This document shows, piece after piece, positions 14,730-55,381 of a DNA stretch of 64,000 bases; position 1 is the stretch's first letter, and each line of letters starts with the position of its first letter. Source of the DNA: Sedimentisphaerales bacterium (GTDB lineage: Bacteria > Planctomycetota > Phycisphaerae > Sedimentisphaerales > SM23-30). The stretch lies in NCBI GenBank assembly GCA_963666285.1, contig OY762711.1, one strand, 5' to 3'. The notes under the pieces are model-generated. The model was not told the DNA's origin and searched no databases. It was given only the letters and a program-made list of their open reading frames with translations. Both the position numbers and the translations under genes were made by a program.

Positions 14730-15081
14730 AGCTTTAAAACAAGTCGTCCTTGCCAGCGAATTATTCCTGATGTCAACGTACATCAGGACACCTTAATTTT
14801 TCATTTTTCACTATTCATTTTTCATTTAATTGCGGCCTCTGCGAGAGACAAATCTTATCAAAATCACTCTGCTTAATATCTTCCAATCTCCATCCAAACC
14901 AACATCGTTAAGGGCATAGTAGCTCAGGCATCCCTGCCTGACAATAAACCAGCCCTCGCACAAGCGACAACCTCCTTTTCTTTTTTCATTTAGCGAAGCT
15001 TGCCTTCTTCCTCCTCGCTTATCTCTCCTAACTTTTCAACCTCAATTTCACATTTTTTTTTCATCCTTCATCCTTCATCCT
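14730..15081 (-). repeat. repeat copy A, distal part (paralogue of 19780-19921)
   Basis: Read on the minus strand it begins AGGATGAAGGATGAAGGATGAAAAAAAAATGTGAAATTGAGGTTGAAAAGTTAGGAGAG, matching the + strand at 19781-19840. It shares ...CTTGTTTTAAAGCT at the far end. An A-specific insertion of ~150 nt is present. Confidence 0.8.
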
Positions 15082-15800
15082 GTCGAGTAGGCATGTCGCC
15101 TCCTTTCATTAATTTAACAAATTCTGAGTTTCATTATATTTTGTGCAAGGAAACGCATGCCCCTCACAGAACCGGACTTGAAGATTTCCCTCATCCGGCT
15201 CTTCATTAATGCTCACTTTGACGGCTACATAAGGCAAAGTAATGTGCCTTGTAGAAGTCTCCGATAGAAGACGCTGTGGAACGTTCATGGTTTCTTCCAG
15301 TTCAGTGCCTGGCCAATATCCTGTTTCGCCTTTACACATTAATGCTGACCCCTTCGAGTGCCTCAAACTTCGAAACTCAACAGGCATTACCCTGTTTACT
15401 CCTCTACTATGAGTCAGTCCGACTACCAAAATGCCATACGGCCGCGTCACGGTTTCAGCTCCTTGGCCGCTTCCTTTCGGAGCACTTCGGTTCTCCCAAG
15501 TTCCAATGCAGTCAGTTCGTTTGCCCGCTACGGACTCAGACCCCGGCTCGTCGATATATGCTCGCCGTATTTCGCATATATCGATATTGGCTTCAGGCAT
15601 ATGAAAACCCTGGCCCGGATGCGATAAGGAATAATTTCGGGGCTCAACACCTTCACTTGCGTTGTGGCTGACAAACTCCTTTCCCGGGGCTTCGTACAGT
15701 TCGTTACCTCTCTGCACGCCCGGTGCTGTAATGGGCGGGTGGCTAGCCCTTACCCATGCCGGATTGGCCGGCTTGACTACATTAGCTTCGCTTGGCGCTC
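15082..15800 (-). mobile_element. ORF-less group II intron, copy 1 (in non-coding DNA)
   Basis: The 5' end is GAGCGCC. Domain V is GAGCCGGAUGAGGGAAAUCUUCAAGUCCGGUUC (15201..15169). The domain VI helix GAGGGGCAUG/CAUGCCU-A-CUC has a bulged A 7 nt from the 3' end, and the 3' end is ...CGAC. It is absent from the paralogous site at 19776/19777. It differs from copy 2 by 2 substitutions. Confidence 0.8.
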
Positions 15801-16064
15801 TCATACCTCATCCTTCAGGTGCCGTTTCACGGCACCTGTCTGGTCTGCCCACAAATTACCAATCTCAATTTCCAGGTTAACAAACGCCTTTTAATCTTTA
15901 TTTCATACCCCCTTCCGCGCCCTCTCCGCGCTCGTTCTCAGCCCGCCGTAAGCCTCCGCGCGGCCTCCGTTGCCCGCAATTGCCCGGCGTTTAACGCCGT
16001 AAAATCGACTTTGGTACCACCAAACCCAAAATCAGCCAAAATATTTCAACTTCTTGCACACAAT
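15801..16064 (-). repeat. repeat copy A, proximal part (inverted partner of 19516-19779)
   Basis: About 264 bp are nearly identical (~4 mismatches) to the reverse complement of 19516-19779. It contains the hairpin CAGGTGCCG-TGAAA-CGGCACCTG and a GC-rich core. Confidence 0.9.
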
Positions 16065-16527
16065 CTAACCCAAACAGATTAATATATGAACCGCCTCAGG
16101 CAAGATACCAAGACACAAAAATAAACAAACCAGAAGAGATACTCACAGATAAGGAACACCCAAAATTCTCGTCAGAAAATTTCGGTTAGAAATTTGAAGT
16201 CTAAAAAACAGATGGCATAATATGGCATAATATAGAAATAGATGATGGTTAAGTAGTCGCAACCTGAGAGGAAGTATGATGGTTAAGTAGTCGCGTAATC
16301 TGGGGAAGGTATATGGAAGCAGGCTCAATATCGAGTAAATGGATAGTGGATTTGATATCAGGTAAAAGATGGTAGTAAAAGTAGTTACAGTCTCAAACTG
16401 GAAATAGAAGCAGTTGTAATATCAGGATGGATCACGGCATAGCGAAGTCTATTTAGGGCTGTTTAGAGTCAGGCATATTTGATAATATTTTACCTTAACA
16501 TATTATACAGCAATATATTAAGATCGA

Positions 16528-17880
16528 TCAGTCAGCGGATAAATCATTACTTGCGATTGGCTGCAGACCGGGCTCGGTTTTGATAAGTTCCCGGCATTGA
16601 TCCACCGCGGCATTAAGCTGGTTGTCAAGCTGCAGCAACTGGCTGCAAAGCTCTGCGGTTGTTTCATTCTCATGCTGATGCTTTTTTTCTTCTGATTTCT
16701 CGCCGTTTTCGCGGCCATGCAAAAAGTTCATAAGTTCCGCCATTTTCTGGTAGTTATCAGCGTTGAACTCAACTTTTATATCCGGTTCCACACCCCAGGT
16801 CTCGGCTCCTTCCAGCCTGTGTACGCAGTTGCCGTTGGGCAGATAATAGTAATCCGTGGTAAGTTTAACTATGCCGCGGTTGCCCGGCAGCTTAAATGTT
16901 CTCTGGACCGATCCTTTGCCCCAACTTCGCACGCCAATAACCGTGGCACGTTTGTGGTCACGCAGAGCACCGGCAACAATTTCGGAGGCTGAAGCGCTGA
17001 TCTGATCGATGAGCACTACCATATGAAATTCAGGTAAGGTATTATCAGCTTTAGCGTTATGAACCTGTTCCGGGCTATTCTCACCGCGGGTTTTCAGTAT
17101 AACACCTTGCGGTATCAGCCGGTCGATTATGCCGGTCGCCGAGTACATCAGCCCGCCCGGATTACTGCGCAAATCTAATATAAGTGCTTTCATTTCAGTA
17201 TCTAACAGCTCGGCCATGATCTTATTGAAGTCGTCAAGAGTGCTGTCAATAAACTGGCTGATACGTAGATATCCGATGCCGTTGGCTTTGTCCAGATGAT
17301 AATCCCATTCGCCGTTTTCGTCTAGCCGCCAGCCGCGTACAGAGTGCATCTGAATCTTTTCGCGTTTGATATTAAATGTCTTTAGCTCGCCGGTGCTGCC
17401 GCGGTAAATTTGCAGCTTAAGTTCTGCTCCTTCAGGACCTTCCATCTCTTTGACCGCCCTGGCAACATTCCAATCCTGGGTACTTTTATCGTCAATTTCT
17501 ACGATTACATCGCCTGATTTTATGCCGGCTTTCCTGGCAGGTGACTGCTCCAGCGGCGTGATAATGACAATGGCATCGTCTTTCTGGTCGATGCTAATGC
17601 CTATGCCGGTGAAGTTTCCGCTGGTCTGCATGTTGAACTCTTTTTCGCGAGCAGGCGGAATGTATTCCGAATATGGGTCCAGCTCGCTGAGCATGCCGTT
17701 GATAGCGTCAGTTATGATCTTGCCTTCTTCGACCTGTTTGACATACCGTTTTTCTACCAGGTCGGTAACATCGACTAGCGGATCGAAGGCGTCGGGTGTG
17801 CTGGCATTGATGATGTTAATAGCTGTAAGTCCAGCGGTAACAATAAGAAACGAGATATAGAATTTGTGGTTTTTAATCAT
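16528..17880 (-). CDS. S41 C-terminal processing peptidase (Ctp/Prc-like) with PDZ domain
   Basis: NPGGLMYSA, the SASASEIVAGAL Ser motif and WGKGSVQ Lys motif are present, with a PDZ-like GIKSGDVIVEIDD segment. There is an N-terminal membrane anchor or signal. Confidence 0.85.
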   Translation of the reverse strand: MIKNHKFYISFLIVTAGLTAINIINASTPDAFDPLVDVTDLVEKRYVKQVEEGKIITDAINGMLSELDPYSEYIPPAREKEFNMQTSGNFTGIGISIDQKDDAIVIITPLEQSPARKAGIKSGDVIVEIDDKSTQDWNVARAVKEMEGPEGAELKLQIYRGSTGELKTFNIKREKIQMHSVRGWRLDENGEWDYHLDKANGIGYLRISQFIDSTLDDFNKIMAELLDTEMKALILDLRSNPGGLMYSATGIIDRLIPQGVILKTRGENSPEQVHNAKADNTLPEFHMVVLIDQISASASEIVAGALRDHKRATVIGVRSWGKGSVQRTFKLPGNRGIVKLTTDYYYLPNGNCVHRLEGAETWGVEPDIKVEFNADNYQKMAELMNFLHGRENGEKSEEKKHQHENETTAELCSQLLQLDNQLNAAVDQCRELIKTEPGLQPIASNDLSAD

Positions 17881-18088: not shown

Positions 18089-19249
18089 TTAACCGATATC
18101 GCGTTTTCTGAACAGCATAATAGCTATAGTTAGAGCGCCTAGCGTATATGCCATGGTATAGACAGCGGTCCTGACTATATATTTACTTCTCATACTGCGT
18201 TTTTGCAGCTCTTTTTCTTGTTTTTCGGCTGAAAGTTCATGAAGTGGTTTCGGCTCATCGTAAACACCATCGGTAACAACATAAAGATTTATCGACGGTA
18301 TAACTGCCAGTCCGCCCCAGGCACAGGTTGTAGGTAAAATCTGCTTAGGCTTTTCTGTAAAATACTTTACGTAATCGCCCAACGAGACATCGACAGATAA
18401 TTTACTGTCGTCAGTGGTCGGATCAGCCTGTTTGAGGGCAGCTGTTTTTTGCTCGGTTATCTCCTTATATGGCTTCATTGCGACTGGTCCGAGCTTGTAG
18501 TGGACCATTGTGCCAAGCAGAAAAGCGACGGCACAAATTATCAGGGTAGTTACCATATTGAACCGCATGGCAGCGGTAACCGAGATTGAGCAGAACATAA
18601 TCGAGGCCAGCATAACAAGTATGACCGGACCGATGAGGTGGGCTTTGAACTGGTTGTTGGCCGGGTTGTATTTCCAGTCTCGGTCGATAAAGCATAAGAT
18701 CAATATTGACAAGGAGTAAAGGATAGTCGAAAGAAATACCGTCGAGCTGCCAAACCGCCATTTATAGAAATAGTTGCCAAGCGCAGCCAGGGCAATGGCA
18801 ATAAACGAGGAGGCGAAGCTGAAGGTTATAACTGTATAGTCCGGCTCGTCAGAGGCTGACTCGAGCACGCCATGGCGGACAGTCATAAAGTATACCAGGA
18901 TAAGGAGATATTGTGCCAGCAGCACGGCACCGGTTACGCCGAGGAATTTGCCGAGTACGAATGCCGGTCGACTGACGGTCTTGGAGATAACGGTGAGCGC
19001 TGTCTTTCGGTCGATTTCGTCGGTAACGACGGTAGAGGCAGAGAAAACGGCGATGAACAGCCCGGCGACCAGCAGGTTAGATAAACCTATATCCCACATG
19101 AGTTTATTGTCTTCACGGATAGTGAACATTACCAGTGAAGGCGTGAACAGGAAAATGATCTGGGTTGCCAGGATGATAACGATATATATCGGCTGCCGCA
19201 GAGCTTCTGTAAATGTATTTTTACAAACGACTAATGTGTTTTTGATCAT
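18089..19249 (-). CDS. ABC-2/NosY-like multi-pass membrane permease
   Basis: The N-terminus FTEALRQPIYIVIIL...DEIDRKTALTVISKTVSRPAFVLGKFLG is typical of ABC-2 type permeases. There are at least 6 hydrophobic segments. No ATPase partner is in the window. Confidence 0.55.
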   Translation of the reverse strand: MIKNTLVVCKNTFTEALRQPIYIVIILATQIIFLFTPSLVMFTIREDNKLMWDIGLSNLLVAGLFIAVFSASTVVTDEIDRKTALTVISKTVSRPAFVLGKFLGVTGAVLLAQYLLILVYFMTVRHGVLESASDEPDYTVITFSFASSFIAIALAALGNYFYKWRFGSSTVFLSTILYSLSILILCFIDRDWKYNPANNQFKAHLIGPVILVMLASIMFCSISVTAAMRFNMVTTLIICAVAFLLGTMVHYKLGPVAMKPYKEITEQKTAALKQADPTTDDSKLSVDVSLGDYVKYFTEKPKQILPTTCAWGGLAVIPSINLYVVTDGVYDEPKPLHELSAEKQEKELQKRSMRSKYIVRTAVYTMAYTLGALTIAIMLFRKRDIG

Positions 19250-19314: not shown

Positions 19315-19515
19315 GGGGCGGTATCGCCTATCGGCAAGACTAATCTGATATAGCCCCGCAAACTAATTATATTAGTACGCTTTTATGTATCGGTACGCTG
19401 CTAAAATTAAATCCAATTTGGGGTCAGAATGTGCCCGTGGCAGAATATATATCTTCTGACTGAGATTATACGATGGGTGGCCGGGTTGGTTCTGTATTAA
19501 TTAGAATGGAGTAAA

Positions 19516-19921
19516 ATTGTGTGCAAGAAGTTGAAATATTTTGGCTGATTTTGGATTTGGTGGTACCAAAGTCGATTTTACGGCGTTAAACGCCGGGCAA
19601 TTGCGGGCAACGGAGGCCGCGCGGAGGCTTACGGCGGGCTGAGAACGAGCGCGGAGGGGGCGCGGAAGGGGGTATGAAATAAAGATTAAAAGGCGTTTGT
19701 TAACCTGGAAATTGAGATTGGAAATTTGTGGGCAGACCAGACAGGTGCCGTGAAACGGCACCTAAAGGATGAGGTATGAAGGATGAAGGATGAAGGATGA
19801 AAAAAAAATGTGAAATTGAGGTTGAAAAGTTAGGAGAGAGAAGCTTCGCTAGATGAAAAATGAATAATAGAAGTGAAGAATTGAGGTGTTCGCCTGGCGG
19901 CTCACGGCTTGTTTTAAAGCT
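19516..19921 (+). repeat. repeat copy B, the uninterrupted paralogue ('empty site') of copy A
   Basis: It reads the GC-rich core, then the hairpin AGGTGCCGTGAAACGGCACCT, then AAAGGATGAGGTATGA-AGGATGAAGGATGAAGGATGAAAAAAAAATG without the 719-nt insertion. Confidence 0.9.
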
Positions 19922-20699: not shown

Positions 20700-22247
20700 C
20701 TATTTAATCTCTTCCATTTTTTCGATCTTGAAAAATGACTGTGTTACTTTATAGGCATCAAGCGGGTTGCCATCTATGACAGTAGAAGTAATATAAGCAG
20801 GACATTGGCTCTGGTGCGGCCTGGTAGCATCGATTGTATACCAATTATCATTTATCCATACCTGGGTCCAGGCATGGCCGTAAAAGGCATTCTTAACCGT
20901 AGCAAACTCGTCGACATAGAAATAACCAATCGCTACCCTGGCCGGTATCCCTGCAGACAGGCACATTCCCGCAGTTAAAACCGCATGCTCGGTGCAGTCA
21001 CCAGATTTGTTTTTAGCTATATCGAGAGCAGAAGCCCAACCTGTGCTGAGATTTTTATTGTTAATATATCCATGCACAAAGGCTTCGATTTTTTTAGCTG
21101 CTTTCCACGCATCTCTTTCATCTCCTACAGCTTCCAAGGAAAGTTTCCTGATGGCCGGATCATTATATTTGAGCCAGATATTATTAGGATTGAAACATTT
21201 TTCGGCCTGCAGATATTTATGCAAGGATGCATGAGTGTTATCATTAGATTTTTTAAATGCAAGTGATGGATCAATTTCAAAAATATCTGTCGGCAGCTGC
21301 TGACTGACCGGCGGCTGATAGGGCCTGACCTCAATGGTACATTCGTCATTTAATTGTTTGGCAATTACCTGATGATCGTCCTGATAGAAATCAACATCAG
21401 CTTTAGCAAATTTCAAATGGTAACGCATAGCTTTGGCCCTGGTCGGGTCTGGTGAATCAGCAGGGGCTTTGATCGAAACATCGGCGAGGATCTCAGCGAC
21501 ACCTTCATTGGCAAGAGCTTCTTCCATTTCGGCGACGATAAACTGGAACTTCAACCCCATCATTTCGATCGAAGATATCACATCATTACCATCTTCATCA
21601 ATATAGGAGACAGTCTCGATAGCTGTTCCTTTGAGGGTAAGAATAGTAGTACATTTGTACAGCGATTCATCGTAACCGGGCAGGTTAGTCTTATCACCGA
21701 TCACAACCTTGTAATCGACTTCCGACATATCGCCAGGCGAAAAAGCTGTGCCGGTAACGGTAACACCCGGAACAATACCATCCTTCATTGCTTCCTGCAT
21801 GAGCAGTTCTGCTGGCTGGACCTTGTCAGATATTTCCATCTCAAACTTGTTAGTACTGCCACTGATAGCCTGAAGAATATCATACTTGCCCTGCAGGTTG
21901 AGACTGCCATCAACCTTAACTACCGCCGGACCAAACTCCATAGATGAATTGAAACCGCTGAGTTTATATTTAGAAGCCTGGCTGTCCCATTTGAACTCGG
22001 TAGCTTCGGATACTGCTGCGGTAATCTTTGCACCGGCCCGACCGATATTGAGTTTGACGAATTCGCGAGACTTGACAAACTCCGGTGAAGTTTCGCTTAC
22101 GTGATGAATATAGCCGGCTTTCTGGTCGTTGAGCATAACCTTAAACCATTGATCGGCAGTTTCTTCCGGCAGCTGTTCAACAGCAGCAACCGCAGTTGCA
22201 AACATAACCAATATTAGAGATGATAATAATTTTTGTCGAGTAGGCAT
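20700..22247 (-). CDS. secreted transglutaminase-like cysteine protease-fold protein. Coordinates use the intron-internal ATG; the spliced form would be join(22957..22954,22234..20700).
   Basis: The Cys-His-Asp transglutaminase core is present (SGDCTEHAVLTAGMC...GHAWTQVW...IDAT). The N-terminal signal peptide is either MPTRQKLLSSLILVMFATAVAAV (unspliced) or MKKLLSSLILVMFATAVAAV (spliced). Confidence 0.8.
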   Translation of the reverse strand: MPTRQKLLSSLILVMFATAVAAVEQLPEETADQWFKVMLNDQKAGYIHHVSETSPEFVKSREFVKLNIGRAGAKITAAVSEATEFKWDSQASKYKLSGFNSSMEFGPAVVKVDGSLNLQGKYDILQAISGSTNKFEMEISDKVQPAELLMQEAMKDGIVPGVTVTGTAFSPGDMSEVDYKVVIGDKTNLPGYDESLYKCTTILTLKGTAIETVSYIDEDGNDVISSIEMMGLKFQFIVAEMEEALANEGVAEILADVSIKAPADSPDPTRAKAMRYHLKFAKADVDFYQDDHQVIAKQLNDECTIEVRPYQPPVSQQLPTDIFEIDPSLAFKKSNDNTHASLHKYLQAEKCFNPNNIWLKYNDPAIRKLSLEAVGDERDAWKAAKKIEAFVHGYINNKNLSTGWASALDIAKNKSGDCTEHAVLTAGMCLSAGIPARVAIGYFYVDEFATVKNAFYGHAWTQVWINDNWYTIDATRPHQSQCPAYITSTVIDGNPLDAYKVTQSFFKIEKMEEIK

Positions 22248-22953
22248 GTCGCCTCCTTTCATTAATTTAACAAATTCTGAGTTTCATTATATTTTGTGCA
22301 AGGAAACGCATGCCCCTCACTGAACCGGACTTGAAGATTTCCCTCATCCGGCTCTTCATTAATGCTCACTTTGACGGCTACATAAGGCAAAGTAATGTGC
22401 CTTGTAGAAGTCTCCGATAGAAGACGCTGTGGAACGTTCATGGTTTCTTCCAGTTCAGTGCCTGGCCAATATCCTGTTTCGCCTTTACACATTAATGCTG
22501 ACCCCTTCGAGTGCCTCAAACTTCGAAACTCAACAGGCATTACCCTGTTTACTCCTCTACTATGAGTCAGTCCGACTACCAAAATGCCATACGGCCGCGT
22601 CACGGTTTCAGCTCCTTGGCCGCTTCCTTTCGGAGCACTTCGGTTCTCCCAAGTTCCAATGCAGTCAGTTCGTTTGCCCGCTACGGACTCAGACCCCGGC
22701 TCGTCGATAGATGCTCGCCGTATTTCGCATATATCGATATTGGCTTCAGGCATATGAAAACCCTGGCCCGGATGCGATAAGGAATAATTTCGGGGCTCAA
22801 CACCTTCACTTGCGTTGTGGCTGACAAACTCCTTTCCCGGGGCTTCGTACAGTTCGTTACCTCTCTGCACGCCCGGTGCTGTAATGGGCGGGTGGCTAGC
22901 CCTTACCCATGCCGGATTGGCCGGCTTGACTACATTAGCTTCGCTTGGCGCTC
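22235..22953 (-). mobile_element. ORF-less group II intron, copy 2 (inside codon 2 of the transglutaminase-like gene)
   Basis: The same 719-nt element as 15082-15800, with domain V at 22354..22322. Both copies share the 5' exon flank TATGA and the first 3' exon base A. Confidence 0.8.
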
Positions 22954-23057
22954 TCATAATGATATACCTTTGGCTGTATTAGTAAACTTTTGCCGTTTTT
23001 AAGTTGCAAAAACAGCGAAAGTTAACGTGTATATTTCAGAGAGCAATACAGCATTTG

Positions 23058-47040: not shown

Positions 47041-47100
47041 ATTCGTGCCTATTCGTGTGAACCCTGCACTGTACGGTGCAAGGGGATTCGTGGTTAAAAT
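47041..47100 (+). repeat. 60-nt 'TTCGTG-hairpin-TTCGTGGT' element, copy 1
   Basis: The sequence is ATTCGTGCCTATTCGTGTGAACCCTGCACTGTACGGTGCAAGGGGATTCGTGGTTAAAA. It has the same architecture as 52838-52900 and 53680-53742. Confidence 0.85.
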
Positions 47101-47178
47101 TTCTTGCCGTTCAAACAAAATTTGGCGGAGCAGCAACAAGCTACCCCGCCTCGAAAGGATCTTCAACAGAAAAAGATA

Positions 47179-48071: not shown

Positions 48072-48288
48072 CACCTTTTTTTTTCTTAACCACGGATGAA
48101 CGCAGACTCACACTGACACACAGAGGATCCAGCAGAAGTAGTGCATTACTAAGCATTATATCACTGCCGGCCAGGAACCGACTGATAATTGACCGATTAA
48201 CCCCGGATAACTTCTCAAGCTCTCTATAGCTGACCTCGTGCACTTCAAGCTGCTCTTTAACTAATTGCCTGATCTCTTCTATATCCAT
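48052..48288 (-). CDS. XRE-type helix-turn-helix protein
   Basis: The sequence is MDIEEIRQLVKEQLEVHEVSYRELEKLSGVNRSIISRFLAG. I prefer ATG 48288. The upstream extension in the track covers a terminator hairpin and a TTCGTGGT motif. Confidence 0.55.
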   Translation of the reverse strand: MDIEEIRQLVKEQLEVHEVSYRELEKLSGVNRSIISRFLAGSDIMLSNALLLLDPLCVSVSLRSSVVKKKKGVDNSVG

Positions 48289-49362: not shown

Positions 49363-49540
49363 CTACCTATAATATACCACAGTGGTTGTGTCAATGCAAC
49401 CATAAAAGCAAAAAATATTTTCCCCATTCGTGCATATTCGTGTTAATTCGTGGTTAAATAAAGACTTACACTGCAAAACTTTTTCGTAAAATTTCGTGGC
49501 TTCTGTTTCTTAACCACGGATGAACGCAGATTCACACTGA

Positions 49541-52412: not shown

Positions 52413-52600
52413 CTGCCTGCCAGTAACCTTATGACGATCAAATTAAGATGAGCGATAGCGACAACCGGCCCTTATGCCTTATCCCTTATCCCTCATCCCT
52501 GAATTCATTAACCATGTTACTATTGTTAAACATTAAGTATAAGCCGCTGTCGGCGGCGTAGCCGACAGCTTTTTTCAAAAACACTAAACCACAGATAAAC

Positions 52601-52837: not shown

Positions 52838-52900
52838 AATCCGTGTTAATCCGTGTGAACCCTGCACCGGATGGTGCAAGGGGATTCGTGGTCCAAAAAA
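52838..52900 (+). repeat. 60-nt TCCGTG-hairpin-TTCGTGGT element, copy 2
   Basis: The sequence is AATCCGTGTTAATCCGTGTGAACCCTGCACCGGATGGTGCAAGGGGATTCGTGGTCCAAAAAAAC. Confidence 0.85.
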
Positions 52901-52932
52901 ACAATCATCAAAGAACAGGAAACTTAAAACAA

Positions 52933-53473: not shown

Positions 53474-53687
53474 TATTATTTCAGATGACGCTTGGCTATA
53501 TTTTATCGATAGATGGTTGCATCCGAGTAGGCCAACGACTGCCCTGGTGTACAGAATGATGATCCTTGAAAATAAAACATATAAACATGATTGGAAAATC
53601 CCATCATTGTCAACCATGTACAGGTTAATCGAAAATCGTATTTCAAAAAAAACTCAGAAATATTTCCGTAAAGGAATTTATTCGTGA
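53463..53687 (+). CDS. hypothetical phage early protein
   Basis: A 74-aa ORF with an 11-nt overlap with the previous gene. Confidence 0.4.
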   Translation: MANDIISDDAWLYFIDRWLHPSRPTTALVYRMMILENKTYKHDWKIPSLSTMYRLIENRISKKTQKYFRKGIYS

Positions 53688-53742
53688 CCATTCGCGTGAA
53701 CCCTGCACCGGATGGTGCAAGAGAATTCGTGGTCCAAAAAAA
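53680..53742 (+). repeat. 60-nt TTCGTG-hairpin-TTCGTGGT element, copy 3
   Basis: The sequence is ATTCGTGACCATTCGCGTGAACCCTGCACCGGATGGTGCAAGAGAATTCGTGGTCCAAAAAAAC. The following 35 nt up to the ATG are also conserved with copy 2. Confidence 0.85.
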
Positions 53743-53769
53743 CAATCATTAAAGAACAGGAAACTCAAA

Positions 53770-53961
53770 ATGAAAGGACTATTAACAATAACAATATGTA
53801 TCGCACTCGCCTGGCTGCTGGCAGCTATCGGGGTATGGCTGAACATATGTAAAAGAGACTTTACCGTAACCGGCATGATAGTAATCTTATGCCTCATCGG
53901 CATCGCCTGGGACCTGACATGCAGCAAGAGCAGCGACAACCAAGAGACTACTGGCCGATAA
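53770..53961 (+). CDS. small two-TM membrane protein
   Basis: The sequence is MKGLLTITICIALAWLLAAIGVWLN...GMIVILCLIGIAW. It has the same leader as the gene at 52933. Confidence 0.45.
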   Translation: MKGLLTITICIALAWLLAAIGVWLNICKRDFTVTGMIVILCLIGIAWDLTCSKSSDNQETTGR

Positions 53962-55283: not shown

Positions 55284-55381
55284 CGGAGATAAAATGAGCC
55301 ATCAGCGAAATATCAAATCAGCCCCGCCCCAGGCGGCACCTTCCCTGATGCCTTATCCCTTATCCCTTATCCCTGTATAAC

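Follow-up and report, generated by a model that had tools for sequence, protein, structure and literature searches.

We found that the two 719-nt elements on the minus strand of the window (the whole 64,000-nt stretch of Sedimentisphaerales bacterium DNA that was analyzed) are genuine group II introns without a reverse transcriptase (RT) of their own. They belong to a lineage that is widespread and apparently undescribed, and that inserts exactly on the start codons of genes. The explanation that best accounts for all of the data, and that we regard as probable, is that these are ORF-less introns of a start-codon-targeting family that carry a replacement Shine-Dalgarno sequence (SD) and AUG, together with a reading frame that relays ribosomes through the intron. 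Sequence comparisons establish the identity and boundaries of the introns, the pattern of their targets, the covariation of EBS1 with the exon, and the conservation and phase of the intron-borne SD and AUG. The events on the RNA that we propose are predictions from these comparisons.

The original prediction had claimed two near-identical group II introns of 719 nt. Both elements are exactly 719 nt long, lie on the minus strand and match group II covariance models. The two introns, the empty site and the gene interrupted by copy 2 are:

15082..15800, minus strand: intron copy 1, a 719-nt ORF-less group II intron (Rfam RF02005 and RF00029, empty site); junctions ...GAAGGAUGAGGUAUGA/intron/AGGAUGAAGG..., in an intergenic repeat that is an SD and ATGA look-alike
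22235..22953, minus strand: intron copy 2, a 719-nt ORF-less group II intron (Rfam RF02005 and RF00029); junctions ...AAAGGUAUAUCAUUAUGA/intron/AAAAAUUAUUA..., after the ATG-A that starts the gene at 20700-22247
19511..19844, plus strand, opposite to copy 1: empty paralogue of the copy 1 site (inverted repeats I1/I2, ungapped alignment)
20700..22247, minus strand: transglutaminase-like host gene of copy 2 (Pfam PF01841), 515 codons from the AUG in domain VI (D6)

At Rfam gathering thresholds the whole window gave four matches, all on the two introns. The group-II-D1D4-6 model (RF02005) scored 115.9 and 112.2 bits in the two copies (threshold 49; E = 4e-32 and 6e-31), and the D5-D6 model (RF00029) scored 55.5 and 52.3 bits (threshold 40). 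RF02005 was covered from position 1 to 225 of 225, with the match beginning at intron nt 34, and the conserved D1-D4 core is present. As had been claimed, the copies differ by two substitutions, which are at intron positions 244 (A/C) and 633 (U/A). Near-identical copies also occur at other sites of the same 6.15-Mb genome, giving at least five such copies at different sites. The predicted lack of an RT in the element and in the window was borne out by a tblastn search with an intron-encoded protein (IEP) of the cognate family, which gave no match in either element and, across the whole window, a best match of E = 3.6. Scanning for promoters and terminators around both copies gave matches at chance level only.

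The ends of the introns were fixed by the empty site. The sequences flanking copy 1 (15017-15081 and 15801-16069) recur at 19511-19844, where they are contiguous, inverted and 98% identical, and the empty-site junction is at 19779/19780 (...GGTATGA/AGGATG...). Because deletion of exactly 15082-15800 recreates the empty-site sequence, and shifting the boundary by one base fails to do so, the ends 5'-GAGCG...CUCGAC-3' are exact. Both predicted termini, GAGCG as a variant of GUGYG and ...CGAC conforming to the AY rule, are therefore those fixed by the empty site. The 5' end departs from the GUGYG consensus at one base (U2 to A): the window copies and the relatives at loci L112, L018 and L035 begin with GAGCG, and most relatives begin with GUGCG.

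All of the sequence strings on which the original prediction relied were located, including domain V (GAGCCGGAUGAGGGAAAUCUUCAAGUCCGGUUC), the D6 helix whose bulged A is at position -7, and the loop GUUUUCAUAUG. The structural parts, all on the minus strand, are:

15169..15201 (intron nt 600-632; copy 2, 22322-22354): domain V, from the RF00029 alignment
15085..15165 (intron nt 636-716; copy 2, 22238-22318): enlarged domain VI, from the fold and from pairing among relatives
D6 basal helix: GAGGGGCAUG/CAUGCCU-A-CUC
D6 extension helix: CGUUUCCUU (15147-15155) paired with AAGGAGGCG
15599..15604 (intron nt 197-202; copy 2, 22752-22757): EBS1, UCAUAU, in the hairpin loop 15591-15613
15801..15804 (copy 2, 22954-22957): 3'-terminal 4 nt of the 5' exon, ATGA (IBS1 core); ATGA precedes 79 of 97 insertions
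15623..15637 (intron nt 164-178; copy 2, 22776-22790): internal loop of D1, AAAUUAUUCCUUAUC

Domain V has the AGC triad and 2-nt bulge that had been described, with a GAAAU loop, in keeping with the ~34-nt hairpin and GNRA-type loop expected of this domain. Its 13 pairs are 100% paired among relatives, and four of them carry compensatory double changes. The branch-site A, placed by the original prediction 7 nt from the 3' end, is bulged at that distance (intron nt 713; position 15088 in copy 1 and 22241 in copy 2). The minimum free energy fold of domain VI (-29.6 kcal/mol, z = -5.1) contains the extension helix, which sequesters the SD. This extension is 95.8% paired among relatives, with only one double-sided change and three one-sided changes. 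The relative L076, which is not of the start-codon type, has a minimal D6 of 33 nt.

We identified insertion targets with an exon-free sequence pattern, which gave 97 unique, independent insertion sites in many phyla. Loci that matched the 5' pattern but had no D5/D6 were left out as truncated copies or mis-joins in MAGs. The 5' exon ended with a start codon plus one base at 90% of the 97 sites (ATGA at 79, GTGA at 4 and ATGG at 4), and base +1 of exon 2 was A in 41 of 49 junctions. A second pattern, built from the 3' end only and applied to metagenome sequence, gave ATGA or GTGA in all nine of the visible 5' exons. There was a GGAG, GAGG or AGGA motif 3-10 nt upstream at 65 of 87 start-type sites, compared to 14% of 2232 background ATGAA sites. 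One single MAG had about 26-40 sites of one lineage, in dozens of unrelated genes. In a Cytophagia MAG, an SD was present at 96% of intron sites and at 48% of crude gene starts. This MAG had been considered as an "SD-poor" test of targeting versus selection; it does use SDs, and the comparison is suggestive only. No description of such start-codon behavior was found in the literature searched, a search whose scope did not extend to Michel et al. 2007 and Simon et al. 2008.

The candidate EBS1/IBS1 pairing put forward in the original prediction gained support from covariation: the EBS1 loop changes together with the 5' exon across four target classes (EBS1-exon pairs UCAU-AUGA, UCCCUA-UAGGGA, ACCAAU-AUUGGU and ACAUUU-AAAUGU). 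In the window, the exon partner of EBS1 UCAUAU is (G/A/U)UAUGA, and EBS1 matches the exon of each copy. Because EBS1 pairs with AUGA and the next base is usually A, the intron sits between ATG-A and the remainder of codon 2, and the typical hosts would be genes beginning with Met-Lys. The UUCCUU in the D1 internal loop is complementary to AAGGAA, making the loop a candidate EBS2/anti-SD. A test of this complementarity fell short of significance: P was 0.33 when loops were permuted among sites and 0.04 when they were shuffled. We retain the loop as an anti-SD EBS2 only as a candidate.

At approximately 40% of junctions there were fewer than 50 in-frame codons downstream, and copy 1 has only 8 codons after its D6 AUG. 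Because copy 1 is on no real gene and so many junctions are short, the niche comprises start-site-like sequence, and not true starts alone. These sites bear on the possibility that the window elements are ordinary ORF-less introns with a short, low-specificity target (AUGA/A), the link to start codons being a product of survivorship and the SD, AUG and open frame being incidental. The short junctions are consistent with that possibility, as are the non-significant EBS2-SD test, the small number of exon bases (4-6) that demonstrably pair with EBS1, and the lower frequency of strict SD motifs at non-gene sites (about 4 of 10, by our own tally). The enrichment of SDs could reflect the survival of harmless insertions instead of recognition. 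However, insertion at an intergenic ATGAA without an SD should do just as little harm, and few of the occupied sites are of this kind. Survivorship also leaves unexplained three features of the introns themselves: an SD-like motif together with an AUG at a constant distance of 13 nt in every start-codon-type lineage, which relatives with other targets do not have; the location of the SD within a covarying helix; and a frame that has stayed free of stops through 130-205 substitutions. We therefore consider this possibility quite unlikely.

The translation signals carried by the intron, and the frame that leads to them, are on the minus strand:

15099..15105 (intron nt 696-702; copy 2, 22252-22258): SD, AAGGAGG
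15092..15094 (intron nt 707-709; copy 2, 22245-22247): D6 AUG, within the 3' strand of D6
15109..15804 (copy 2, 22262-22957): read-through frame of 231 codons, evaluated with dinucleotide shuffles
15106..15111 (copy 2, 22259-22264): tandem stops UAA UGA, closing the read-through frame 14 nt upstream of the D6 AUG
15107-15109: extra in-frame AUG overlapping the stop (UAAUG)

The D6 AUG is 13 nt from the 3' end of the intron and reads in frame into exon 2 wherever the target is ATG-A/NN. A purine SD-like motif was found 4-9 nt before this AUG in all 16 of the distinct start-codon-type relatives examined, and the spacing in the window subfamily is only 4 nt. Among relatives that are not at ATGA, L076 has neither the SD nor the AUG, and L089 has no SD. 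In 19 loci the frame of the D6 AUG continues for 100 codons or more without a stop; the other frames do so in 2 and 6 loci. In the folded model of D6, both the SD and the AUG are base-paired inside the extended domain. Since a ribosome-binding site and an AUG come with the intron, the interrupted gene is probably translatable without splicing, and translation of the host would then begin at the D6 AUG. Remnants of the intron that are truncated from the 5' end to 31-88 nt still precede long host ORFs. The start codon inside UAUGA, the SD and in-frame AUG in D6, and the stop-free frame spanning the ribozyme were all absent from the original prediction.

The gene interrupted by copy 2 illustrates the two predicted products. 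In its native form it starts at the exon ATG (22955-22957), and its N-terminus resembles a signal peptide. The ligated exons are predicted to read MKKLLSSLILVMFATAVAAV..., with the junction ...CAUUAUGA/AAAAAUUA..., and the predicted N-termini are MKKLLSS... from spliced mRNA and MPTRQKLLSS... from unspliced mRNA. Hosts in relatives include a sulfatase with a Tat signal (MKIRRREFLK..., at L114) and a cupin-like gene (at L112).

The read-through frame runs from the exon ATG through D1-D5 to the D6 loop, crossing the 5' strand of D6. None of 20,000 dinucleotide shuffles matched it in that frame, and the other sense frames contain 14 and 20 stops. In seven ORF-less lineages (69-89% identity) the frame has 182-229 open codons in each, and the other frames have 14-22 stops. 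Random placement of the observed substitutions (130-205) produced 4-8 stops, with a probability of zero stops of 0.0002-0.016. Several of the ORF-less relatives were found via their ORFs, which is an ascertainment bias, and the key P-values come from three lineages that were found by nucleotide pattern alone. Among unbiased elements from metagenomes the frame was open in seven of nine and lost in two. At the level of sequence, these comparisons demonstrate that the open frame has been maintained across lineages. The position of the stop relative to the D6 AUG is identical in L112, L114 and L115. The frame is entered from the host exon ATG in the window lineage, and from an internal SD and AUG at nt ~104 in most relatives. 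The "MRS..." starts of database ORFs of ~195 and 131 aa had been considered as exon start codons; Rfam coordinates place them ~104 nt inside the intron.

A frame that is statistically exceptional and maintained, and to which 254 database "proteins" align, might encode a real protein, that is, a new intron-encoded factor overlapping the ribozyme. However, the variable columns are distributed evenly across codon positions (0.42, 0.48 and 0.45), with no codon-position bias, and the product has no match in Pfam or NCBIfam. The starts vary by lineage, lying at the exon ATG in the window and, elsewhere, at nt ~104 on an internal AUG or GUG. The blocks of "conserved" peptide fall where the RNA itself is conserved, as in D5, and both differences between the window copies alter an amino acid. 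A functional protein is thus very improbable.

Full-length relatives encode an IEP (RT/maturase) of ~445 aa without an endonuclease domain, which matches TIGR04416 at 337 bits. These relatives are tiled with consecutive ORFs, and some relatives retain the first ~63 codons of the IEP. A 1.36-kb insertion in D4 of L140 was considered as an RT and is not one. The window introns would be ORF-less derivatives of the family with the ~445-aa RT/maturase. Both copies occupy the G-rich strand, opposite to that of the empty site, an arrangement that fits retrohoming without an endonuclease; mobilization would be by an IEP acting in trans with lagging-strand priming.

We consider it unlikely that the window copies are instead immobile, non-splicing relics that are kept as translated leaders, with the SD and AUG of D6 driving the downstream gene. 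The 5' end is GAGCG and not GUGCG, the window contains no RT, and targets have been left without an intron, namely one identical site 4 kb away and 41 NTATGAA heptamers across the window; in addition, the truncated remnants elsewhere show that a host gene can be served by no more than the 3' end. Against this, the presence of at least five near-identical copies at different sites, with only 2 of 719 nt differing between the window pair, indicates recent transposition. Domain V, the branch site in D6 and EBS1 are intact, and EBS1 fits the exon of each copy. GAGCG is found in at least three lineages (the window, L112, and L018/L035) and is therefore apparently tolerated, and the empty site is in the orientation that is disfavored by endonuclease-less introns. 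We infer that the window introns splice and, in agreement with the original prediction, that their mobility is supported in trans.

The explanation that we favor takes the translation start site as the niche of the intron family. The terminal loop of D6 would have expanded to house the SD and AUG, offsetting the insertion. Unspliced mRNA would yield a host protein in which M(P/S)TRQ replaces MK, and spliced mRNA would yield the native protein. Ribosomes on the read-through frame may melt D6, uncover its SD and AUG and re-initiate, a form of translational coupling, and translation of this frame would also avoid a long untranslated stretch. We give roughly even chances to a broader proposal, in which the translation initiation region is a fourth generic target, recognized as AUGA/A via EBS1/EBS3 and possibly also at the SD, by an anti-SD-like loop in D1. 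In this proposal relay ORFs tile the intron and would carry ribosomes from the host start across the ribozyme (and, where a copy is full-length, across its IEP) as far as the host gene, and splicing and translation from the intron AUG would be mutually exclusive on each transcript.

Other introns are known that share some of these properties. As summarized by Gomes et al. 2025 (PMC12584367), introns of the IIB1 start/stop-codon lineage (Michel 2007; Avi.groEL, EcKTE56.groEL) lie on translation signals, the end of the groEL introns regenerates the disrupted signal (stop UAA to UAG), every member has a 300-700-nt 5'-subterminal insertion in domain I, and each intron has a particular housekeeping gene as its homing site. 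Compared with the lineage as described there, the window family is similar in being at the initiation codon (after ATG-A in 90% of sites). It differs in that the window introns are 719 nt in total, match RF02005 and have no 5'-subterminal insertion, and in that one lineage of the window family occupies dozens of unrelated genes and the relatives have an IEP of ~445 aa without En.

Class C (IIC) introns insert after intrinsic terminators, and IIC-attC introns insert at attC. Like these, the window family has a generic, genome-wide target, a very short IBS1 and IBS3, an IEP without En and a strand bias, and it spreads widely at little cost to the host. In contrast to IIC introns, it recognizes a translation start (SD...AUGA/A) and not a DNA hairpin, and a terminator is unnecessary: the 5' exons are SD-N-ATGA, there is no hairpin and U-tract at the sites, and neither window copy adjoins a terminator-like site. 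It also differs from IIC introns in lying inside the transcription and translation unit and in carrying replacement translation signals.

ORF-less introns that are mobilized or spliced in trans include the TeI3 family of Thermosynechococcus elongatus (Mohr et al. 2010, PMC2882425) and the dnaN introns of Trichodesmium (cited in PMC12584367). So far as they are described, these resemble the window introns in being short IEP-less derivatives with multiple near-identical copies and ORF-containing kin, and differ in using conventional homing sites. We know of no report of a built-in SD and AUG, or of an open frame spanning the ribozyme, in TeI3 or the Trichodesmium dnaN introns. In the fungal mitochondrial introns aI1 and aI2 of yeast cox1, the frame of the upstream exon runs through domains I-III and encodes an RT/maturase fusion. 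A reading frame likewise enters the window intron from the upstream exon; unlike that of cox1, it encodes nothing conserved and ends at the restart site of the host gene. In an alternatively spliced intron in a surface-layer gene of Clostridium tetani, alternative splice sites are used (McNeil and Zimmerly, PMC3919590). Spliced and unspliced transcripts of the window introns are similarly predicted to yield different host isoforms, but these would differ in their first residues only (MK versus MPTRQ), through the intron-borne start.

Bacterial group II introns are thought to persist either outside genes or through efficient splicing. Here, an intron apparently occupies the single most sensitive position in a gene and is made harmless by replacement translation signals. 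There are consequences for annotation: gene callers annotate the read-through frame as coding for a hypothetical protein, with 254 such entries in the database, and host genes called from the intron AUG are given false MPTRQ or MSTRQ N-termini. If our interpretation is correct, targetrons could be designed to integrate at gene starts while leaving the gene expressed. The number of known targeting strategies would also rise to four, a standard review (PMC4424553) having listed three (specific homing sites, terminators and attC sites). Ribosome traffic and ribozyme folding would be in natural competition on one RNA. Finally, the finding would explain why near-identical RT genes of this intron family are present in many phyla, because every genome would offer hundreds of SD-ATG-A sites.

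Two elements of the window were compared with each other and with the Rfam models:

15082-15800, minus strand: intron copy 1, an ORF-less group II intron of 719 nt
22235-22953, minus strand: intron copy 2, an ORF-less group II intron of 719 nt

The copies were near-identical, as originally described, with mismatches only at intron positions 244 and 633. We scanned the entire 64-kb window at gathering thresholds and obtained four matches in all, two to the group II D1-D4 core RF02005 (type 6; 115.9 and 112.2 bits, threshold 49, full model covered) and two to the D5-D6 covariance model RF00029 (55.5 and 52.3 bits, threshold 40). No other Rfam family was matched at threshold in the window. The D6 fold recovered the predicted bulged branch A at position -7, and the window was indeed without a reverse transcriptase, the best tblastn match to an intron-encoded protein (IEP) of the family having E = 3.6. 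The original observation is real and its group II interpretation is right.

The window also contains its own empty site. A repeat finder located the flanks of copy 1 adjacent to each other, inverted and 98% identical, at 19511-19844. In an ungapped comparison, excising exactly 15082-15800 yielded the sequence of this twin site (...GGTATGA/AGGATG..., the slash marking the junction), and a one-base shift either way failed; the intron ends, 5'-GAGCG and CUCGAC-3', are therefore exact. The introns lie among ordinary chromosomal genes (CLC channel, glycosyltransferases, S41 peptidase, RsmH). The repeat itself is a 334-nt non-coding segment present twice, inverted, with 98% identity, at 15017-16069 (split by intron copy 1) and 19511-19844. 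Between its copies lie the S41 peptidase (16528-17880) and ABC-2-type (18089-19249) genes, and candidates for its nature are mobile element ends, a regulatory RNA or a duplicated intergenic region.

The 5' exon of copy 2 ends in ...AAAGGTATATCATTATGA and exon 2 starts with AAAAATTATTATCA.... Ligated, the exons read ATG AAA AAA TTA TTA TCA (MKKLLSSLILVMFATAVAAV...), a signal-peptide-like start of a transglutaminase-like protein of 515 codons, so that the intron lies between ATG-A and the remainder of codon 2. The intron's 3'-terminal 13 nt are AUG CCU ACU CGA C, preceded by AAGGAGG, and translation from this D6 AUG into exon 2 would read MPTRQKLLSS..., in frame with the native protein. Copy 1 occupies a look-alike target, GAAGGATGAGGTATGA/A, in the intergenic repeat, with only 8 codons downstream. 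Short arrays of the heptamer (A/G)GGAT(G/A)A (AGGATGAAGGATGAAGGATGA, complement CCTTATCCCTTATCCCT) occur in intergenic regions at 15055-15081, 19780-19806, 52464-52504 and 55338-55378; they resemble sites with a Shine-Dalgarno (SD) motif and ATGA, and may multiply intron pseudo-targets in this genome. A separate 91-nt intergenic repeat family (47041-47131, 52839-52929 and 53680-53770; also 48077-48116 and 49501-49540) combines tandem ATYCGTG motifs with a downstream hairpin (CCCTGCACC...GGTGCAAGGG), with no Rfam family at threshold.

We identified relatives using 20 intron-internal bases of the 5' end (GWGCGCCAAGCRAAGCTAAT), with no exon bases, in one genome per bacterial species. There were 100 matches, in MAGs labeled Cytophagia, Desulfobacteraceae, Spirochaetes, Victivallaceae/Lentisphaeria, Omnitrophota, KSB1, Planctomycetota, Fibrobacterota, Actinomycetota, Neomarinimicrobiota and others. 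Among 97 unique 5' exon ends, 79 were ATGA, 4 GTGA and 4 ATGG. GGAG, GAGG or AGGA was present 3-10 nt upstream (mode 6) in 65 of 87 start-type sites; for the other 2232 ATGAA pentamers of these loci the figure was only 14%. Metagenomes were scanned independently with a pattern from the intron 3' end only; of the 33 loci obtained, nine had a visible 5' exon, which ended in ATGA or GTGA in every case. The first base of exon 2 was A in 41 of 49 unique 3' junctions, making the native second residue Lys in 35. Of the loci with at least 300 nt of exon 2, 19 had the D6-AUG frame open over 100 codons or more, versus 2 and 6 for the other frames. Hosts include a sulfatase with a twin-arginine signal (MKIRRREFLKQLASAGFG; locus L114) and a cupin-like gene (L112), and several further junctions have lipoprotein- or signal-peptide-like starts. 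About 40% of junctions had fewer than 50 codons downstream; the family therefore occupies sequences that resemble start sites, and not just functional starts. SD motifs were more frequent at occupied sites than at crude gene starts of the same genomes (96% vs 48% in one MAG, 64% vs 35% elsewhere). The SD may be recognized, or may merely mark sites where insertions survive.

The loop proposed as EBS1 (intron nt 197-202) varies together with the 5' exon, and this covariation demonstrates the EBS1-IBS1 pairing.

EBS1 loops and 5' exons of related introns (L-numbers are loci from the genome and metagenome scans)
EBS1 UCAU; 5' exon AUGA; main start-codon lineages
EBS1 UCCCUA; 5' exon UAGGGA; L076/L098
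EBS1 ACCAAU; 5' exon AUUGGU; L089
EBS1 ACAUUU; 5' exon AAAUGU; L055
EBS1 UCAUAU; 5' exons GUAUGA, UUAUGA, GUAUGA, AUAUGA; window lineage (both copies, L001, L112)

Most lineages show no constraint at bases -5 and -6, so that the effective IBS1 is often only AUGA. Just upstream of EBS1, a single-stranded D1 segment (UCCUU or CUCCUU; UUCCUU in the window) is SD-complementary; its complementarity to its own exon was not above that of loops permuted among sites (P = 0.33). A Victivallaceae/Lentisphaeria subgroup (L016, L037, L044, L055, L099) lies after repeated ...gctcaacgacactccaaagtat or ...aaaatgt, not SD-ATGA, with EBS1 altered to match (ACAUUU) and the D6 SD and AUG still present.

All 16 distinct start-codon-type relatives examined had a purine SD-like motif 4-9 nt upstream of the D6 AUG, and in all 16 this AUG was 13 nt from the intron 3' end. 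Of the introns with other targets, L076 has a minimal D6 of 33 nt with neither SD nor AUG, and L089 has no SD in D6. The window D6 folded as a single long helix (-29.6 kcal/mol, z = -5.1), with the AUG in the basal stem and AAGGAGGCG paired with CGUUUCCUU. Among 16 window-type sequences, the D6 extension helix was 95.8% paired, with one double-sided change (U-A to A-U; CUCC/GGAG to CACC/GGUG) and three one-sided G·U/G-C changes, and D5 was 100% paired with four double-sided changes. Other subfamilies have a similar D6 helix of different sequence, e.g. ACUCCU/AGGAGU. On four metagenome contigs (L118, L127, L138, L143) only the terminal 31-88 nt of the intron are left (SD, AUG, CUACUCGAC), fused to long host ORFs (e.g. 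318+ codons in L127). These dead 5'-truncated insertions appear to be kept as the gene's translation start region, and are natural evidence of D6 SD/AUG use.

Beginning at the exon ATG, 229 intron codons can be read without a stop, up to UAA UGA, which lies 14 nt upstream of the D6 AUG. This openness was not matched in the same frame by any of 20,000 dinucleotide shuffles, and the two remaining sense frames have 14 and 20 stops. Frames of this type have been called as genes 254 times in databases. A protein-coding function was ruled out, with variable columns spread evenly over codon positions 1, 2 and 3 (0.42, 0.48, 0.45); no Pfam or NCBIfam family was matched by the frame. Each of seven ORF-less lineages (69-89% nucleotide identity) keeps 182-229 open codons, a 30-nt insertion in L114 is in frame, and the frame was open in 7 of 9 complete elements of the unbiased metagenome set. 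Restricting a random-substitution test to three lineages found by nucleotide pattern alone (window, L029, L059), random placement of the 130-205 observed substitutions gave a mean of 4-8 stops (P of none = 0.0002-0.016 per pair). The long upstream frame is absent from the non-ATGA relatives L076 and L089. A second AUG, at 15107-15109 and 22260-22262, overlaps the read-through stop (UAAUG) and shares the frame of the D6 AUG and exon 2; because of it a mechanical ORF list places the host start at 22262 (520 aa). Translation could alternatively restart at this codon, which is replaced by UUG or UGA in relatives.

In most lineages the exon-ATG frame is closed at nt 81-90, and the read-through frame is entered at an internal start codon (AUG or GUG, nt ~104) preceded by GAGGAGG. 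This internal start has been lost in the window and L112 lineages, where the read-through frame is fused to the host ATG instead. In full-length introns the end of the read-through frame (~123-131 codons) overlaps the IEP start codon, and the IEP ends ~10 nt before D5, followed by the D6 SD-AUG. In five of these (L072, L075, L082, L109, L022) the exon-ATG frame is closed by a UGA at nt ~87 that abuts GGAGG, and the next frame, of ~131 codons from an AUG at nt 104, runs through D1-D3. Coupled translation beginning at the host start codon may be needed for IEP expression. The simplest reading would be a relay of translationally coupled ORFs across the intron, in which ribosomes would pass through the intron, melt D6 and re-initiate on the host gene. 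Long untranslated gaps in bacteria invite Rho-dependent polarity, and from this general knowledge we infer that the relay would also prevent such a gap inside the intron.

Full-length relatives are 1.89-1.99 kb and encode an IEP of ~445 aa (RVT_1, YADD, TIGR04416 at 337 bits) that lacks an endonuclease domain. IEP codons 2-63 are retained in some ORF-less relatives, indicating that ORF-less forms arise by deletion. The IEPs are mutually 87-100% identical, with more than 100 database clusters among the matches listed and names from Deltaproteobacteria to Patescibacteria, which suggests either very recent cross-phylum spread or binning contamination by a multi-copy element. The source genome has at least 5 near-identical ORF-less copies, one inside an RHS-like ORF. 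Both window copies are oriented along the G-rich (leading) strand, opposite to the unoccupied twin site. Strand bias is established for RmInt1 and IIC introns, endonuclease-less introns using lagging-strand primers; the window placement matches it, as a consistency check only. The sole relative found from a cultured, annotated record (L149; NC_005915.1, 39.0-41.1 kb, Caedibacter taeniospiralis pKAP298) carries no annotation beyond that of an RT-domain protein. Its IEP is 64% identical and its 3' architecture is that of the family (AGGAG-N8-AUGUCUACUCGAC/A); its 5' part no longer matched RF02005, and its short D6-AUG frame overlaps the following annotated gene through a terminal AUGA. Elsewhere, a Planctomycetota MAG contig (L051, 4402-4536) has a different group II core (RF02003, D1D4-4; 52.5 bits) ~1.6 kb downstream of a family member, and a window-type intron (L140; metagenome contig Ga0315295_10052055) is interrupted precisely within D4 by ~1.36 kb of sequence that shows no similarity to RTs and may be a nested, unrelated insertion element.

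The review by Zimmerly and Semper 2015 (PMC4424553) recognizes three kinds of target: homing sites, terminators and attC. According to Gomes et al. (PMC12584367), all members of a IIB1 start/stop-codon lineage have a 300-700-nt 5' insertion, and the mechanism is called unknown. The present elements differ from that lineage, as described there, in size, core type and IEP type, and on those grounds cannot belong to it. Generic start-codon homing with an intron-borne SD and AUG was not found in the full-text literature searched; subscription papers fell outside it, and an earlier description is possible. We infer all functional steps for the start-codon lineage from sequence. ORF-less group II introns were already known as such. 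What appears to be new here, judging by sequence comparison, is a lineage that is resident on start codons, with putative built-in replacement translation signals of its own and a maintained, non-coding read-through frame.
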